Virus record (IMG/VR): IMGVR_UViG_3300037882_002350
Span: 18,999 to 82,998 of that record
Reading direction: 5' to 3' (one strand)
Origin: a virus
Taxonomy: Duplodnaviria > Heunggongvirae > Uroviricota > Caudoviricetes
DNA: 64,000 nucleotides
The notes beneath the pieces are model-generated. The model saw only the letters and a list, made by a program, of their open reading frames with translations, was not told the origin of the DNA and searched no databases. The position numbers were made by a program, and so were the translations under genes. Below are positions 7,010-61,234 of the stretch, piece by piece (position 1 is the stretch's first letter; each line of letters opens with the position of its first letter).

Positions 7010-8995
7010 TTAAGATGCTGGGAATCTAAGACCTACAACAGACTTAGCGTCTGGAATAATTTCATCAAAGCCAAGACGTTGGCTAGATACTAGCACAGTT
7101 CGCTGATTTTCAGTCTGGTATTCGCTTTCGATTGTCATACCACGTAGACGTGGAATTACGAAGTTACGACGATTTAGAGCAAGAGCAAAGTAGTTATTTG
7201 CACCTGCTGGAGCAAATTCATCACACATAATAACGGAAGAACCGTATAGACGTCCAACTTCACCTGTAAGCTTGTTTGCATTTTGTGCACCAACCAAATC
7301 AGCGTCAGCAAATTCAGGGTCTTCAATTAGCTGGAAGTACGCGTCTTGTGAAACGATATAAACTACATCACGAGGATCCAGACCGTATTTACCCATTGTC
7401 TTACGAAGACCAAACAAACCAGCGCCTGTAAGCTGTGTGCTCAAGCTTGCTGCTGTAACAGTACGGCTGTTAGTAGCTGCAAAATTTAGAAGACCTTTAG
7501 CTGCACCAGAAGTGTATACACCTTGGTTAGTGTTACCTGCAAGAAGCATGTTTTCAACACCTCGAGCATGGGTTCTTTGCATAGATTCTCTAATCAGAGG
7601 TAAAATAGGAAGAATTGCGTCTTCTTCTGTTTCATTACCTAGATAAGCTTTGGAAATCATCTTTACAGTGCTTAGAGTTTTCTCTGTAAGTGTGATACCA
7701 CCATAAGGTGAACCAAAAGCAGCTCCTCTAGCGTCAATGTTACCATTAGGCTGAGTTCCTGCAGCTGTTGTAGCAGAAGTAATTTCTGCGTATCCAGCGT
7801 CCGGCATGATTGGGAAAGTCATTTGAGCGCTGTTCATGTTAATCTCTCTAAATAGAGGAGCAAGAATTAAGCTATTCCAAATGTCTCTTTCAATATTAGT
7901 GCTGATAATTGTTTCAAGATTATCATTACCAGTGCTTACTGTTGAGTGTGTGTTAAACTTTTCTAGAACGCCTTGACCAAACTTAGTTGAGTCAATTCCG
8001 CCCTTACGAACAGCTTTTGCAAGAATGAAAGCGTCTTCTGCTTCACGCATCAAACCTTCATTTTTGAAAGGATCTGAAGTTTTATCGCTAAAGTTTCTTT
8101 TTGATTCTGTGAACGCTTTAAGTTCCGCACTCTTAGCTTCTAGATCATCTTTCATTTGAGCAATGGTCTTTTCCAAGTCTTCGTTGTTTGATTTTAGCTT
8201 ATCGCCAAATTCAGCAAGTAGTTTTTCTTCAAGACCTTTAGTTGCTGCTTGAGCAGCTACTTTAGTAGCTTCTACTGCGGCTTCTTTCTCTGCACGTTCT
8301 TTAGCAGCTTTTTCTTCTGCTTCTTTTTGCTCTTTCATTTTTTCTGCAAAAAGTTTTTCCGCTAGAGCCTTTACTTCTTCTTCATTCATTGTTTTATTCT
8401 CCGGAGGTACTTCAGTACCGGACTTGAGCGAGTCGATTTCTGAGTCTAATGCATTTACATTTTCTTCAGCAGAGTCATTCTGGCCCTTTAAAGCATTTGT
8501 TTCTATGTTAAATTTATTACGGTCTAAGTCGTTTTCAAAAGATTTGGAAACGCTAAAGACTGCTGCCTGATTACAAGGAACTGAAACAACCGATACTTCT
8601 AGTAATTCTGCGTCTCTAATAATGTAACCATCTGTTGTTTGGTTGTAGTCTGCATCTTTAATCATAAAACCTACAGAAAAAGTACTAAGTACTTCATCCT
8701 TAATTAGGCCATAAGTTTCTCCTGCAGATTTACTTATTTCACATTCAATTTTAAGACCTTGGGCATCTACTTCTAGTTTTGTTGCCCGTCCTATAGGTTT
8801 GCTGTAATTATGATTAAACAAGATTATGGGATTTTTTTGATAGTTTTCTAAACCACCTTTAACCCAAGCATCTGGAATAATTACATCACCTGCTCGGTCT
8901 GTATCGGCTGTGCTCGCATAACCTAATATCTTAAGTTTATCTCCATCTTCCGATATAGACTTAATACGAGATTCTAGTGTAAATTTACGAGCCAT
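7010..8995 (-). CDS. fused prohead protease - scaffold (delta-like) domain - HK97-fold major capsid protein
   Basis: 661 aa. The N-terminus (GYASTADTDRAGDVIIPDAW...) matches the HK97-family (S78) prohead serine protease. The middle is a Glu/Lys/Ala coiled coil (EEKAAKERAEKEAAVEATK). The C-terminal ~300 aa look like a capsid shell domain. It sits directly downstream of the portal. Confidence 0.6.
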   Translation of the reverse strand: MARKFTLESRIKSISEDGDKLKILGYASTADTDRAGDVIIPDAWVKGGLENYQKNPIILFNHNYSKPIGRATKLEVDAQGLKIECEISKSAGETYGLIKDEVLSTFSVGFMIKDADYNQTTDGYIIRDAELLEVSVVSVPCNQAAVFSVSKSFENDLDRNKFNIETNALKGQNDSAEENVNALDSEIDSLKSGTEVPPENKTMNEEEVKALAEKLFAEKMKEQKEAEEKAAKERAEKEAAVEATKVAAQAATKGLEEKLLAEFGDKLKSNNEDLEKTIAQMKDDLEAKSAELKAFTESKRNFSDKTSDPFKNEGLMREAEDAFILAKAVRKGGIDSTKFGQGVLEKFNTHSTVSTGNDNLETIISTNIERDIWNSLILAPLFREINMNSAQMTFPIMPDAGYAEITSATTAAGTQPNGNIDARGAAFGSPYGGITLTEKTLSTVKMISKAYLGNETEEDAILPILPLIRESMQRTHARGVENMLLAGNTNQGVYTSGAAKGLLNFAATNSRTVTAASLSTQLTGAGLFGLRKTMGKYGLDPRDVVYIVSQDAYFQLIEDPEFADADLVGAQNANKLTGEVGRLYGSSVIMCDEFAPAGANNYFALALNRRNFVIPRLRGMTIESEYQTENQRTVLVSSQRLGFDEIIPDAKSVVGLRFPAS

Positions 8996-18719: not shown

Positions 18720-19009
18720 GTAATCACCATTCTTATAGGGATAATTTTAAGAGTATCACGATTGTCCCATATTCTCAATTTAAAATTAAATTCACCTGCC
18801 GTTGTGGGTATTCCTGTAACTGTAAGTCCGGAAACTGACATACCTGTCGGTAGGGCACCTTCAAAAATGTCGACGGTGTAGGGCGCCTGAGCTCCGGTTG
18901 GAACAAGCGTTACAGTTGCGGTCGAGTTGGAGGGATAGGACGGATTTTGAGTTATACTGACTTGGAAAAGTCTAGCTCGTTTTCGTCGCAAAAGAAAGTT
19001 TCGTCTCAT
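18716..19009 (-). CDS. hypothetical structural protein (first gene of late leftward operon)
   Basis: 97-aa ORF. Its start codon lies 8 nt downstream of a TTGACA-N17-TATACT promoter, so the message is near-leaderless. Confidence 0.3.
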   Translation of the reverse strand: MRRNFLLRRKRARLFQVSITQNPSYPSNSTATVTLVPTGAQAPYTVDIFEGALPTGMSVSGLTVTGIPTTAGEFNFKLRIWDNRDTLKIIPIRMVIT

Positions 19010-27604: not shown

Positions 27605-27925
27605 ATTGACAGGACGGTCAAAACGCGATATAAGAGATTATCAAGACGAGATAAGCCTTAAGCAAGTGGAGGCGTCTTGGGTGGGTAGTCCGGCCCTAGA
27701 TACCGTGATAGCGTGCCAATACGGGGTTAATAAATTGGTGTGACACTTCCTGTCACTAAGGTGGAGCGTAGGCTATTTCGGCCTGTCGATAATACCAAAC
27801 GAAACCGGAACCTATTCCGCTTGACAGTAAATAGGCGTTATCACATAACGTAAAAGAGGCTCGCTTGGCTTCGCGTGAAAAAGAAAAGCCGTTGCGGAGT
27901 CATGACCGTAACGGCTTTTTGATTT
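27605..27925 (+). ncRNA. short promoter-to-terminator transcription unit B
   Basis: TTGACAG-N17-TATAAGAG, then the conserved leader ATTATCAAGA, then about 280 nt with no long ORF. The only candidate is a 21-codon GTG frame behind a GGAGG. It ends in terminator GCCGTTGCGG...CCGTAACGGC-TTTTTGATTTTTT. Confidence 0.35.
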
Positions 27926-40867: not shown

Positions 40868-41248
40868 ATGGAAAACGAAATTTTAGCATTTTTAAACAGA
40901 CGTGAAAATCTGCGAGCTGATTTAGTCCTTTGTTTGACAGACACCTCCATCCCACTAGATACCCGATGGAGTGCTTTTTTATCTTCTGAAGATATTTTGC
41001 CTATATGGCCTTGGATAGATAGACCTATGGATATTTATTCCGATTGCCTTTATGACGATTTTTGTATCGAAAGGCATCAAACCGCAACTTATGCTGAAAT
41101 AGACGAACAAGTTTGTCAAAATTCAACTACGGAAGGTGAGGAGCCAGGATATCAGGCTGAATTTTGGGATGCTTGCTATGCTAAGCGTGACCTATGGCGA
41201 GAGGCAGTTCTGGCAAGTGGTTATAGTGGTTTTGTTTACGATTGGTAA
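40868..41248 (+). CDS. hypothetical early protein
   Basis: 126-aa ORF with RBS aaaggagacaatATG downstream of a consensus early promoter. Confidence 0.35.
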   Translation: MENEILAFLNRRENLRADLVLCLTDTSIPLDTRWSAFLSSEDILPIWPWIDRPMDIYSDCLYDDFCIERHQTATYAEIDEQVCQNSTTEGEEPGYQAEFWDACYAKRDLWREAVLASGYSGFVYDW

Positions 41249-41453
41249 ACTTAATTATTGACTTTGACGCTCAATGTGTCTATATTGAGAAAATGGAAAG
41301 CGCGAAGAACTATCGAGATGGCGCTTTAACGGGCAATTCATTGAGTTGTCGCAGTTGGTAGGCAGTTCTAGGATATTGGAGGGCGGCTAGGCTTGGCAGT
41401 CGTTAAATGAAAGGTGTAACTGGCTTTCACCCTACCATATCTTAAAAAAGTTC

Positions 41454-41482
41454 TTGACTTTCAAGGCTTTTAATAGTATAAT
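41454..41482 (+). promoter_or_regulatory. consensus early sigma70-type promoter
   Basis: AGTTCTTGACTT (TTGACT 41454-59), 17 nt spacer, TATAAT (41477-82), then GAG. Confidence 0.55.
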
Positions 41483-42183
41483 GAGTTTTCAAGATATGGG
41501 AAGGGCTGCAATCCTTCTTATTAGTTATGAAGCATCAATGGTCGATGTACCCCTCTTAAAGGGTGTGTTCTCTGCGGAGAATGTGGTTCGATTCCACCTT
41601 AACGAACTAAGCTGTGCCGAGCGGGCATTCCTCGAAAGAGAGAATACGGGTTGGATTCCCTAGGCTTAGAAGTCTGAAATGCACAGCGGGCTTTGAACCC
41701 GAAAGACAGAGATTGGTAGCCTCTGACGCATAGCGTAGGTGTAAACATACTACCCAATTTGACTAGTGCAACGAACTTTAAGGCACGATAAATATGGAGA
41801 AGTTATAAAAAGTATGACGCTAGAAGCGCGTATAAAAACAGTTGTTGACTGGCCATACTATACTTGAGGTTCAATGCGATGGCGTCGGTTGAATAATAGC
41901 TACCCCATTATTAGTAATGAAAATAACTAGCTTTCCTCTTGCAAATAGAAAGACGTTTCTATTGGAGCATAAAGGGTTGTGGCATCGCACAACATTCTTC
42001 CTAGCGGATGGTAGGGGCTAGGGAGCCGGATTTTATTGAGGTTAAAACCTCTACGAAACGGGCCTGTGAGTGTAATGATACCGGTCGCCAGACCAACCCG
42101 TGTATGTCGGGAGTCCTAAGTCTCACAGATAGGGATAACACATGCACTTAAGGCGGCGAGGTGAGAATCTTGCCGCCTTTTTA
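41483..42183 (+). ncRNA. about 700-nt promoter-to-terminator structured non-coding RNA candidate
   Basis: No ORF with RBS between promoter 41454 and terminator GGCGGC...GCCGCC-TTTTT (42150-42183). It contains tRNA T-arm-like hairpins (GTGGTTCGATTCCAC; GGGTTGGATTCCC; CGGGCTTTGAACCCG) and many short helices. Confidence 0.4.
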
Positions 42184-43415
42184 GTAACTGTTAATAAAGC
42201 TATTGACACATAGCTTAAAAAGTACTATTATTCAGGAATAAATGATGAAATCAATTCTATGTCTGCTAGGTAAACATAAACTCGTTAATAATAGAATTTA
42301 TTGTGGCGGAGATACATGGAAAACTGTAAACCAATGCACTAGATGTGGTTTTATCGAAAGAGAAAATACTTTTAATTTGACACCTATAAAACGGAGTAGG
42401 AATGGAACCCCTTGATTTAAAAAAGCTTCTTTGGATGAACAAAGATACTAAAGATAGCGTGGTTATCCTGTCTATTAAAGATGATAAAGTAGAACTTAGT
42501 GATTGGAGGTCTGATTCTACTTTTGTTATAACAACAAAAGATTTTTCTAAAAAATACGAAGCAACTTATCAGGTGGAGTTTTAATGGATTACTTACTATT
42601 AAGAAAAGAGATTAAAAGGTTTAACGGATCTAACGATAGTGACGACGACGTATTGGATGCTTTTGTAAACTTAACCTGTGACACAAAACATTATTCTGAC
42701 AAAGATCTAAAAGCGGTTATTAAAGAATATAGATTATTTGAATCAAATAATCCGGAATTTGTTGCTATGGGGGACTTATGGCCTTAAATAGAAGCATAGA
42801 TAGAGATTATGATATTCCAGAACACCTTAAGGGAATCGAAGACGCCCTAAAAGAAATCCAGTTCCATCTGGATGGACTAGAAGGTGTTGGTTACGATCCT
42901 GTAAACGAACTTAGAAAGATAAATGAGTTTTGTGTGAAGATAACAACAAGTTATTACTAAGTCACTTAGTTGTGACTTTTGGCTTCTCTAAACGAAATGC
43001 AGAGATAGCCATACAGATGCTCCAAAATGGTCAGCTTGACATTATGGAAGAGAAGGTGATTGAAAAATTAAAGCTGGCACCCAATGATATGCAACAACCT
43101 AAGGTTGAGTACTATATTCCAACATGTAGTACAGGTATTGGGATTTTGGAGCATCTTAATTATAAAATCACACAAAATGGTGGAGACGCAGTTATAAAGG
43201 CTAATAAAAGGAGAGTATAGTGTTATTTGTAAAGGGTTTAACGCTAGTTCTAGGAGTACTCATAACCTTATTTATGGTTATAACAGTTGTATATTATGGA
43301 GCTAGATGGGTATACTCCAATTTTCTATCAGATGAAAAAGAATTGGTAGAACAAGAAGAACGACTAGAAAAATTAATTAAAGAATACACCGAAATAATGG
43401 AAGAAGGAAAAGTAA

Positions 43416-47705: not shown

Positions 47706-47735
47706 TAACTCTTGACATTTAGTTAAAAGTATCGT
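47706..47735 (+). promoter_or_regulatory. sigma70-type promoter of the tmRNA-like gene
   Basis: TTGACA, 17 nt spacer, TAGTAT. Confidence 0.45.
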
Positions 47736-47741
47736 AGTATG

Positions 47742-48300
47742 CAAACATAGTTGTTGATAAAGGACAATAAAAGTGAACAGGACGCGGAGGGCAGCACTCC
47801 GCCGCCTCCACCATTAAATCTACCTAGGTATTTAAGGGACCGAAAGCGTAGAGCCAGCAGCCTTAACTGCAAACAACACGCCAACCTCATAAGTTGGAAT
47901 CGGGGCTTGGCTTCCCCCACTTGTCGGGTGACAGGTTAGTGTAAGGCGTTGGTAGATTTATTGATGGGGGCGAAATAGGATCGACTGGCGCAGAATAGGA
48001 AATTAGTAGACTATTGACTAGCAAAGTGCTAAAATCGTTAAATGCAAATGACAACGAAAACACTGTGGAGTATGCGCTAGCCGCATAATTTAACGGGGAT
48101 TGGCCCACCTGGCAACATAACGGGCTAACATCTTTAAGAACCGGGATGCAACAGCTATAAGTAAGTATATGAAAACCTTGAGAAAGGCATTTCAATATGA
48201 CTAGTAATATACTGAACGAAAAGTGGTGCTGAAATTAATAAAGTAGCTAATTATTAAGGGGTTCGACTCCCTGCATAACGGCTCTTAAAGATGTAGTTTT
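47742..48300 (+). ncRNA. ssrA: circularly permuted (two-piece) tmRNA-like gene: acceptor piece then coding piece with tag ORF
   Basis: Acceptor piece at 47780-47813 is GGACGCGGAG-ggcagca-CTCCGC-CGCCTCC-A-CCA; compare the E. coli tmRNA 3' end GGACGCGGGTTCAACTCCCGCCAGCTCCACCA. At 47966-47986, GGGGGCGAAATAGGATCGAC is complementary to CGCCTCC; compare the E. coli 5' end GGGGCTGATTCTGGATTCGAC. Tag reading frame 48044-48088: GCA AAT GAC AAC GAA AAC ACT GTG GAG TAT GCG CTA GCC GCA TAA = ANDNENTVEYALAA*. Confidence 0.65.
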
Positions 48301-59021: not shown

Positions 59022-59097
59022 GCTCGGTTCGACTTCTGGTGAGGCCACCCTCCTTACAAGTGGGTTAAGATGGGTTCAATTCCCATACCGAGTACCA
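59022..59097 (+). tRNA. tRNA-Val(TAC)-like
   Basis: Acceptor GCTCGGT/ACCGAGT (G1-U72), anticodon arm CCCTC-cTTACaa-GTGGG, T-arm ATGGG-TTCAATT-CCCAT, discriminator A, encoded CCA. The D-stem is weak. Confidence 0.45.
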
Positions 59098-59621
59098 GTT
59101 TTCTAGTAGGTGAGAACCGCTACCTCACACACCTTTCATGCCATATGAAGGTACAATAGCCTTGGTTGCCTATATGGAGACCGCTCCAAGGTGAAGAGAT
59201 CGTACTTTGCAATACGACTAGAAAATATAGGGATGGCTGTCATTCCTTCTACCGCTTAGAGCGGGGTAAAGCCTTTAAATAACCGTATAAGGGGTGGCAT
59301 AACTTGTAGTTCTTAAGTGAACCGTGGCGATCACGATAGCTTCGCACGCATGTCTACTAAGCGTAATATGGTTCGGACGGACTGTAGATAAAAAGCGACC
59401 GTACAGGGAAACCAAATTAGGTCGCTTTAACCGGCCCCGTTATCCAACGTAAATGGACTTCCTTGTGAAAACAAGGAAAGACCTCACCTAGGTGGTCTAA
59501 AAACAGGATCTAGTGTCGCGGAAAAATGGTCAATTCGCGTAGATAAAATAACCACGTGAAGGTACGCACTCGAAGACCTTCTAGTCGTGTGGGCGACGAT
59601 AATACCCACTTAGTTTTATGT

Positions 59622-59695
59622 GCTTCCATCCTCTAATGGTAAGAGACCCGCCTGATTAGCGGTGAATCGGAGTTCGAATCTCTGTGGAAGTACCA
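59622..59695 (+). tRNA. tRNA-Ile(GAT)
   Basis: Acceptor GCTTCCA/TGGAAGT, D-arm CTCT-AATGGTA-AGAG, anticodon loop CTGATTA, T-arm CGGAG-TTCGAAT-CTCTG, then A-CCA. Confidence 0.6.
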
Positions 59696-59698
59696 TAT

Positions 59699-59775
59699 TC
59701 CCCGAAGTGCAAATTGGTATAGCAGCACGGCTTTGAACCGTGTGCTTGTGGGTTCGAAACCCACGCGGGGATCCA
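59699..59775 (+). tRNA. tRNA-Gln(TTG)
   Basis: Acceptor TCCCCGA/GCGGGGA (one mismatch), anticodon arm CACGG-cTTTGaa-CCGTG, T-arm GTGGG-TTCGAAA-CCCAC, then T-CCA. Confidence 0.55.
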
Positions 59776-61087: not shown

Positions 61088-61234
61088 GTTTAAAAAGACA
61101 AAGGCACAGCATAACTAATACTAGTTAAACATAAGTTATATTAGGTAATTCCTAATTGCACGGCTTATTAACAGAATTAATTACTCAAGTTAATAATCTA
61201 GGTAGCTTTGTGCCACCAATCAAAAAAACAGTTC

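Follow-up and report, generated by a model that had tools for sequence, protein, structure and literature searches.

A candidate gene for a large, modular non-coding RNA in a distant T5-like phage

Introduction

Large structured RNAs (>500 nt) of unknown function are few in bacteria and phages, being represented mainly by GOLLD, ROOL, OLE and HEARO, and each of the earlier large classes opened new biology, the latest example being the RNA-only nanocages. In the present study, we analyzed a 64,000-nt stretch of viral DNA (IMG/VR record IMGVR_UViG_3300037882_002350, positions 18,999 to 82,998; hereafter the window, whose numbering is used unless a related contig is named), with attention to the non-coding stretch 41249-42241, which is flanked by a DUF7020 gene (40868-41248) on one side and a small open reading frame (ORF) with its own promoter on the other and appears to hold the gene for an RNA of this size class. 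Counted to its terminator, the RNA is about 695 nt long from the main promoter (P2) and about 890 nt from an upstream promoter (P1).

GOLLD (RF01998) is a very large RNA of phages and prophages that occurs at tRNA islands, is composed of conserved (3') and variable (5') domains, sometimes carries tRNAs embedded in its linker, and has no known function; ROOL (RF03087), likewise large and ornate, is found in phages and prophages, in many cases close to tRNA genes, and neither a protein partner nor a function is known for it (PMC12286853). The RNA described here is also phage-borne, tRNA-associated and large, with conserved and variable domains, which is a likeness in kind and not membership. It differs from GOLLD in its core motifs (a GACCG...CCGGU junction, and GGAGCAUAAAGG followed by a hairpin and a G-rich loop) and in the T5-like lineage that carries it. 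From ROOL it differs in having no Rfam match, in its modular growth from about 0.5 to 1.8 kb and in its explicit tRNA-like and anticodon-arm-like modules. Unusual features of the family are a three- to four-fold variation in length, brought about by insertions at fixed points around a small core, and overt tRNA mimics, including an invariant tRNA-Gln anticodon loop, whose positions are occupied by genuine tRNAs in relatives. No Rfam model reached its gathering threshold within the RNA region, and in a permissive scan of 41100-42400 (E up to 10) the only meaningful match was to tRNA-Sec, with none to GOLLD or ROOL; the GOLLD and ROOL covariance models likewise found no match in two of the relatives (L001, L008) at E up to 5. 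The family is not in Rfam, and the RNA is a large phage RNA closest in kind to GOLLD and ROOL without being a member of either.

A second comparison is with the tRNA operons of phages and with the small stable RNAs from the tRNA regions of T4 and T5, the T4 species 1 and 2 RNAs being matured by RNase P. By analogy, the present RNA would share with them strong early promoters of host type, tRNA-shaped units and a probable maturation by host tRNA-processing enzymes, and one promoter family drives both the genuine tRNAs of this phage and the large RNA. The difference is that the tRNA-shaped units here cannot decode (loops of 8-10 nt, no CCA) and that a conserved non-tRNA core of several hundred nucleotides makes up most of the transcript. 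Viral tRNA-like structures and the bacterial YrlA (Y RNA-like) RNAs are also non-coding RNAs with a tRNA-mimicking domain and a T-loop consensus; they measure 100-200 nt, belong to the 3' ends of plant viruses or to the Rsr operon, and their Rfam models do not match here. Finally, phage tRNAs are known to counter tRNA-cleaving defences, and T5 tRNAs neutralise PARIS (PMC11464382, PMC12409363). With the T5 tRNA-Lys, Thr and Asn that act against PARIS AriB, the locus shares a T5-like phage, U-rich Lys-like and Gln-like anticodon arms and a possible part in protecting translation, but those are functional replacement tRNAs, whereas here apparently non-functional mimics are fused to a large RNA, for which a decoy role is proposed.

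Conserved RNA structure

Relatives of the locus were recovered by exact-protein look-up of the neighbouring DUF7020 and Band_7 genes, which led to syntenic contigs from Logan and JGI (L numbers below); the non-coding unit recurs in five other distinct phage contigs and, doubtfully, in a sixth (L014). In these, a gene-free gap (Table 1) lies upstream of the Band_7 gene, and directly after the DUF7020 gene wherever the latter was called. When the window is set against L001, the non-coding block shows 76-86% identity, whereas among the genes of the 10-kb neighbourhood the best-conserved reach 70-71% and most are unalignable as DNA, the DUF7020 proteins being 60% identical; the RNA region is the best-conserved DNA of its neighbourhood. 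Other routes to relatives gave nothing: IMG/VR searches with DUF7020 and Band_7 as single proteins found none, a 24-sequence Band_7 alignment found none either, and exact and degenerate DNA patterns for core module D had 0 matches in IMG/VR, in JGI metagenome contigs and in one genome per GTDB species. The known relatives come solely from Logan/SRA assemblies and from a handful of recent metagenome records of JGI, and the family exposes a gap in coverage, its members being missing from the IMG/VR, JGI contig, GTDB species and GenBank phage sets searched.

Module D gave the following picture. In five cleanly aligned loci, its two helices are 95% paired and both sides change in 9 of the 13 pairs. 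A covariance model (R1) built from those five sequences, L011 being left out, found the L011 copy at 66.6 bits (E 2.5e-18) and scores the window copy at 91 bits. With the L011 copy, which adds new compensatory changes, six sequences show 96% of cells paired and both sides changing in 10 of 13 pairs. The covariation score is 0.90, against 0.28 after shuffling (0 of 500 shuffles reach the observed value) and at most 0.25 with the partners slid.

The remaining helices were compared module by module, since RNAalifold on the three closest sequences recovered no cloverleaves and little covariation; a global full-length MAFFT alignment was unusable owing to the large insertions. A scripted table, in which regular expressions fix the positions of eight helices (A1, A2, M0, C, Fo, Dh, Da, Db), contains 50 pair columns that are 96.7% paired, 37 of them changing on both sides, as against 71% and 15 columns in shuffles, none of 1000 of which reached the observed values. 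Junction F rests on this table and not on a covariance model. The helices hold 17 G·U pairs versus 2 A·C pairs, which points to the plus-strand RNA, and not to a DNA structure, as the selected molecule. The whole RNA folds with z = -2.67 relative to shuffles. The region is under purifying selection for RNA structure, with at least eight helices covarying. The initial annotation, made from the sequence of the window without database searches, had proposed a free-standing, structured RNA running from promoter to terminator; this stands, conserved secondary structure being present in the homologues together with conserved promoters and terminator.

What is truly conserved is the core at 41841-42038, and not the T-arm-like hairpins. 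This core, as well as P1 and the conserved structured segment behind it (41258-41450), had escaped the initial annotation. Within junction F, an inner helix (ACUG 41848-41851 with CGGU 41886-41889) encloses an inserted hairpin (41852-41883); the strings GACYG and YCGGU are conserved, and two CCGGU strings are candidate partners for the 5' strand of the junction. Module D consists of helix Da (41976-41981/41988-41993, loop GCAUCG) and helix Db (41999-42005/42017-42023), which bears the G-rich loop. A candidate pairing of this loop with CCCUACCAU of unit A fits the window and L001 and fails in L008, L013 and L016.

Behind the core, the 3' tail is specific to each lineage: L016 lacks it, and its length rises from about 70 nt (L011) through about 170 nt (L013) and 515 nt (L001) to about 1200 nt (L008). 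The long 3' extensions of three relatives (L001 7700-7766, L008 2824-2875, L014 7632-7691) have one more conserved module in common (CCUUAAUCC ... GGGCUAAAUUGUGG), which does not occur in the short tail of the window. L014 has junction F and a 3' module in common with L001 and L008, and carries a tRNA-Ile inside the homologous RNA.

Table 1. Features of the RNA locus in the window, and gene-free gaps at the same locus in related contigs
Feature	Position or contig	Strand	Remarks
Upstream promoter P1	41258-41286	+	TTGACT-17-TATATT; hexamers kept and spacer varies in L001, L003, L008, L013, L016
Unit A, structured upstream segment (160 nt)	41293-41450	+	present in 6 of 8 loci
Main promoter P2	41445-41485 (-35 at 41454-41459, -10 at 41477-41482)	+	TTGACT-17-TATAAT; 11/12 match
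Leader hairpin M0	41498-41519	+	conserved loop GCUGCAAU; covarying stem
tRNA-like module T1	41522-41607	+	long variable arm, GGTTCGATTCC T loop, 8-nt 'anticodon' loop, no CCA
tRNA-like module T2	41607-41670	+	degenerate cloverleaf, TTGGATT loop; ARAGORN at -ps80
Module C	41672-41769	+	hairpin 41687-41701 (loop CUUUGAA) and second hairpin C2 41707-41725
Linker	41766-41834	+	two small GUGC/GCAC hairpins, 41766-41786 and 41813-41834
Core junction F	41841-41927	+	outer helix 41841-41846/41922-41927, paired in 7 loci with differing sequence
Hairpin Dh, directly before module D	41945-41962	+	paired in 6 loci, six different stem sequences
Core module D	41962-42038	+	GGAGCAUAAAGG, helix Da, helix Db, then CCGGAUUUU
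Lineage-specific 3' tail	42039-42149	+	not conserved; holds 'P7-like' string 42109-42141
Intrinsic terminator	42150-42183	+	arms 42150-42160/42169-42179, then TTTTT
Promoter of next transcription unit	42203-42231	+	11/12 match; marks the RNA gene as a self-contained cassette
Gene-free gap at RNA locus	L001		1.5 kb
Gene-free gap at RNA locus	L003		partial (contig ends)
Gene-free gap at RNA locus	L008		2.0 kb
Gene-free gap at RNA locus	L013		about 1.4 kb
Gene-free gap at RNA locus	L014		1.7 kb
Gene-free gap at RNA locus	L016		about 1.2 kb
Gene-free gap at RNA locus	L011		0.5 kb

Transcription unit

The strong early promoter that had been read at 41454-41482 is P2, and it belongs to an extended promoter family, AAAAAGTTCTTGAC-N18-TATAATGAG, with six sites in the window (40810, 41445, 45956, 49691, 58828 and 61226), all on the plus strand and followed by a conserved TCAAGA start region, where 0 would be expected by chance; two of the six are located upstream of tRNA genes. 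The terminator seen at 42150-42183 proved equally sound, its arms and TTTTT being present in the window, a terminator standing at the RNA end in every full-length relative, and the stems covarying in L001, L008, L013, L014 and L016. In the same five contigs, a promoter equivalent to that of the next transcription unit follows the terminator. With a sigma-70 promoter and an intrinsic terminator that are both kept in homologues, the locus is an independent transcription unit of bacterial type. Unit A, which lies between P1 and P2, is read through into the main RNA, as there is no terminator before P2.

Three minor points concern these signals. A 19-nt inverted repeat around P2 (41430-41448/41486-41504) was dropped as a candidate element, not being conserved in L001. 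A conserved GCGCCGACCA stands between the RNA terminator and the next promoter in L008 (3095-3110), L013 (8487-8500), L014 (8312-8325) and L016 (8360-8372), and is found in neither the window nor L001; a protein may bind there. Besides the extended promoter family, the window has a second one (TTGACAG..TATAAGAG..ATCAAGA), with sites at 27606, 27942 and 28191.

tRNA-like modules and the 5' part

The 5' part of the RNA is built of hairpins and tRNA-like modules that change sequence while keeping their pairing. In unit A, helices A1 (41297-41303/41321-41327) and A2 (41334-41339/41343-41348) both covary in L013 and L016, and the stem of the leader hairpin M0 reads GGGAAGG/CCTTCTT in the window, ACTTGG/CCAAGT in L016 and CTAAGGT/ACTTTAG in L008.

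Module T1 matches the Rfam tRNA-Sec model (41521-41606) with 31.9 bits (E 4.4e-4), which is under the cut-off of 47, and the scan found no match of T1 to RF00005; ARAGORN reports it only at -ps80 and not at the default setting, at which the L001 copy is called. It possesses the T arm (GTGGTTCGATTCCAC at 41583-41597, with a GGTTCGAATCC-type loop) and the D arm of a tRNA. Its T stem changes from GTGG/CCAC to GCGG/CCGC in L003, and its D stem GCATC/GATGT shows compensating changes in L001 and L003. Instead of the 7 nt of a tRNA, its 'anticodon' loop counts 8 nt (CUCUUAAA in the window) or 10 nt (L001, L003). A real tRNA-Lys(UUU), at 53 bits, occupies the place of T1 in L008, and T1 looks like a disabled tRNA of the Lys type, given that its loop in L003 contains CUUUUAA. 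Neither of the first two modules ends in CCA (T1 is followed by ACUAAG, T2 by AAGUC), whereas the genuine tRNAs at 59022-59775 do.

Module T2 has a non-canonical loop at the anticodon position; its acceptor CTAAGC/GCTTAG is swapped in L001 for GAGAAAGTG/CACTTTCTC, which still pair, and its D-like and T-like stems compensate as well. Module C bears the loop CUUUGAA, which is identical in the window, L001, L003, L008, L013 and L016 on a stem that covaries (CGGG/CCCG versus CGAG/CTCG), and which equals the anticodon loop of the phage's own tRNA-Gln (59699-59775); its second hairpin changes from CAGAG/CTCTG to TGGAG/CTCCA in L001. Concerning the T-arm-like strings that had been pointed out from the sequence, all are present, and the first two (41583-41597 and 41648-41660) lie within cloverleaf-like folds once the ARAGORN threshold is lowered. 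The third, the CGGGCTTTGAACCCG hairpin at 41687-41701, is instead a look-alike of an anticodon arm and not a T arm.

In the linker, the GTGC/GCAC of the window becomes GTAC/GTAC in L001 and L003 and GTGC/GTAC in L008, and in L001 and L003 an optional module X of about 125 nt is inserted between module C and junction F.

A conserved ORF of 51-61 aa (MYDKIA...) was observed between P2 and the large RNA in several relatives (L008 1151-1306; L011 3210-3365; L013 7564-7731; L016 7384-7569; L004 1054-1182), and its place is taken by tRNA-like modules in the window, L001 and L003.

Discussion

We read the locus as a self-contained gene for a large structured non-coding RNA of a modular family in uncultured T5-like phages, the product being processed, acting in trans and serving as a decoy, and we judge this reading as a whole to be probable, though well short of assured. 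The RNA would be made by the phage early and in large amounts. Owing to a promoter of the type used by its tRNA genes and to the tRNA-shaped units at its start, host tRNA-processing enzymes would be expected to cut it: RNase P and the 3' trimming enzymes, which process phage tRNA operons, would likewise cut at its tRNA-like modules and release a stable core RNA. The product might then act in trans as a folded RNA, by analogy with GOLLD and ROOL. As to mechanism, we prefer a decoy or sponge for anticodon nucleases or other host factors directed against U-rich anticodon loops, to which the non-decoding, Lys-like T1 loop and the invariant CUUUGAA loop would present anticodon arms. The decoy is preferred because T5 tRNAs neutralise PARIS and because the lineage carries tRNAs, a transfer-messenger RNA (tmRNA), a peptidyl-tRNA hydrolase and, in L016, an RNA ligase with a polynucleotide kinase-phosphatase (PNKP).

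A bolder proposal, which we put forward tentatively and regard as rather doubtful, is that these RNAs could be the earliest known representatives of a new class of giant phage RNAs, modular and 0.5-1.8 kb long, in which non-decoding mimics of tRNAs and anticodon arms are joined to a conserved non-tRNA core, working either as a decoy for host anticodon nucleases or further defence enzymes directed at tRNA or, in the manner of GOLLD and ROOL, as a self-assembling particle that holds tRNA-shaped cargo. If either were true, the unexplained association of large phage RNAs with tRNAs would be tied to the conflict over translation. The family may in this way offer a lead on why large phage RNAs sit with tRNAs, be it as a processing substrate, as a decoy for anticodon nucleases or as a carrier.

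Several points weigh against the processed, trans-acting decoy RNA. The core itself (F, D) shows no likeness to tRNA. Support for T2 as a tRNA-like fold is moderate, with an alternative hairpin possible in L001, and support for module C, possibly a third such fold, is moderate too. The helices of the scripted table were chosen by eye, which biases its counts upward. The conserved core folds with no better energy than shuffles (z = 0.09), so the evidence for structure is comparative and not thermodynamic. The family is known from about seven distinct sequences, of which L003 and L001 are close to the window; it is real, though thinly sampled. Module D was not found in L014 even with filters off, and L014 may be only a partial relative. 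At the locus, L017 shows no gap of this kind (L004 and L005 are too short to tell), and the RNA is dispensable, given that some related phages such as L017 do without it.

Among the other explanations, the one that survives best, and that we still consider unlikely, is a cis-acting RNA, i.e., a structured leader, 3' untranslated region or transcription insulator serving neighbouring small genes such as the MYDKIA... ORF. In four relatives (L008, L011, L013, L016) the RNA does come directly after that ORF on the same transcript, L011 has no clear terminator before the next gene, and unit A lies upstream of P2 as a leader would. Against this, no ORF lies between P2 and the terminator in the window, L001 or L003, the genes past the terminator are served by a strong promoter of their own, and a size of 0.5-1.8 kb with embedded tRNAs and modular insertions is unlike known cis-regulators.

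Somewhat more improbable is a decaying tRNA-gene cluster, in which T1, T2 and the CUUUGAA hairpin would be pseudo-tRNAs of an old operon and the rest functionless spacer. Such a history would suit tRNA-like modules that fall under tRNA thresholds, with abnormal anticodon loops and no CCA, as well as the real tRNAs at equivalent places in L008 and L014, the unexplained spacers of T5-like tRNA regions (e.g., 59098-59621) and the absence of the unit from some relatives. It would not, however, account for a region that is the best-conserved DNA of its neighbourhood, for a non-tRNA core (F-Dh-D) that stays paired through many double substitutions across distant phages, or for promoters and a terminator of its own that are conserved; compensatory change, and an invariant loop on a covarying stem, are not expected of pseudogenes.

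That the hairpins act in DNA, as a T5-type injection stop signal (iss) or a replication origin, seems very improbable to us. The stretch is indeed long and non-coding, it belongs to the early portion of a T5-like genome (in L011 an A2-like gene stands a few genes before it), and the iss of T5 itself occupies about 1.8 kb of non-coding DNA. But the T5 iss, which lies in the terminal repeat, is a dense array of multi-copy direct repeats (8 x 25 nt and 5 x 23 nt; families of 8, 6 and 5 copies), whereas the window region contains 0 repeat families; it has no DnaA boxes, it is bracketed by a promoter and a terminator, and its excess of G·U over A·C pairs fits a plus-strand RNA and not a DNA cruciform.

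We find it scarcely credible that the RNA is a ribozyme of the group I intron kind, or any other catalytic or housekeeping RNA already known. The RNA is large and structured, and an earlier reader had likened AGUCCUAAGUC at 42112-42122 to the P7 region (G-binding site) of group I introns. The 'P7-like' string is present at 42109-42141, but it lies in the non-conserved tail, which is largely replaced in L001 by the 515-nt insertion, only an AGAUAG piece of the motif recurring there. The resemblance itself did not survive the Rfam scan, in which the RNA region, at E up to 10, matched none of Intron_gpI, RNase P, 6S and tmRNA, nor did the relatives at E up to 5 and 0.5 (L001 and L008 among them), and the tmRNA mode of ARAGORN returned nothing in the RNA region. 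No split gene flanks the RNA, as had been suspected from the failure to find exons: on one side stands an intact DUF7020 gene, on the other a small ORF behind a promoter.

Just as hard to credit is that the region conceals a gene for a protein, read with a frameshift or in an alternative code, for although ORFs of 33-69 aa exist in the region, the longest complete one in 41489-42183 has 55 aa against a shuffled mean of 67 aa (the lack of coding potential having been noted at the outset), ORF lengths do not rise above the shuffled level in any of 7 loci (the window and six relatives), gene callers call nothing in relatives' gaps, which extend to 2 kb, the indels that separate relatives are not multiples of three and break every ORF, and substitutions follow base pairing.

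Phage and genomic setting

On the minus strand, the window carries structural genes for a terminase, a prohead protease-major head protein fusion and a tail fibre; on the plus strand are nine genes for tRNAs, genes for NAD salvage and one for a 553-aa protein homologous to the A1 DNA-transfer protein of T5. Its A1 is about 40% identical to that of Klebsiella T5-like phages, and a nucleotide search of GenBank phages gave no match to the RNA region or to the 14 kb around it. On these two grounds, and judging by gene content, we take the source to be a distant, uncultured T5-like phage. The fusion is a 661-aa ORF (7010-8995, minus strand) that matches the PHROG head maturation protease in its N-terminal part and the major head protein in its C-terminal part, which suggests a fused protease-capsid gene.

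The phage lineage shows a marked theme of translation and tRNA repair, comprising tRNAs, tmRNA, peptidyl-tRNA hydrolase and tRNA repair. A two-piece (circularly permuted) tmRNA lies at 47708-48130 on the plus strand (Rfam alpha_tmRNA 89.2 bits, tmRNA_permuted 89.1 bits), with its own promoter at 47712-47740 and a tag reading frame that ends ...ANDNENTVEYALAA; ARAGORN did not report it. In the relatives, ribosomal protein S21 genes were found in L014 (12169-12366) and L017 (8120-8311), RNA ligase and PNKP genes in L016 (1-1627), and a peptidyl-tRNA hydrolase (PTH2) gene in L001 (3623-4075).

Two further non-coding stretches accompany the tRNA genes of the window. About 250 nt separate the early promoter at 61226 from tRNA-Pro, and a 524-nt spacer (59098-59621, plus strand) runs from tRNA-Val to tRNA-Ile; this spacer has no Rfam match and a folding z of -1.5, and could be another structured RNA or a processed spacer.

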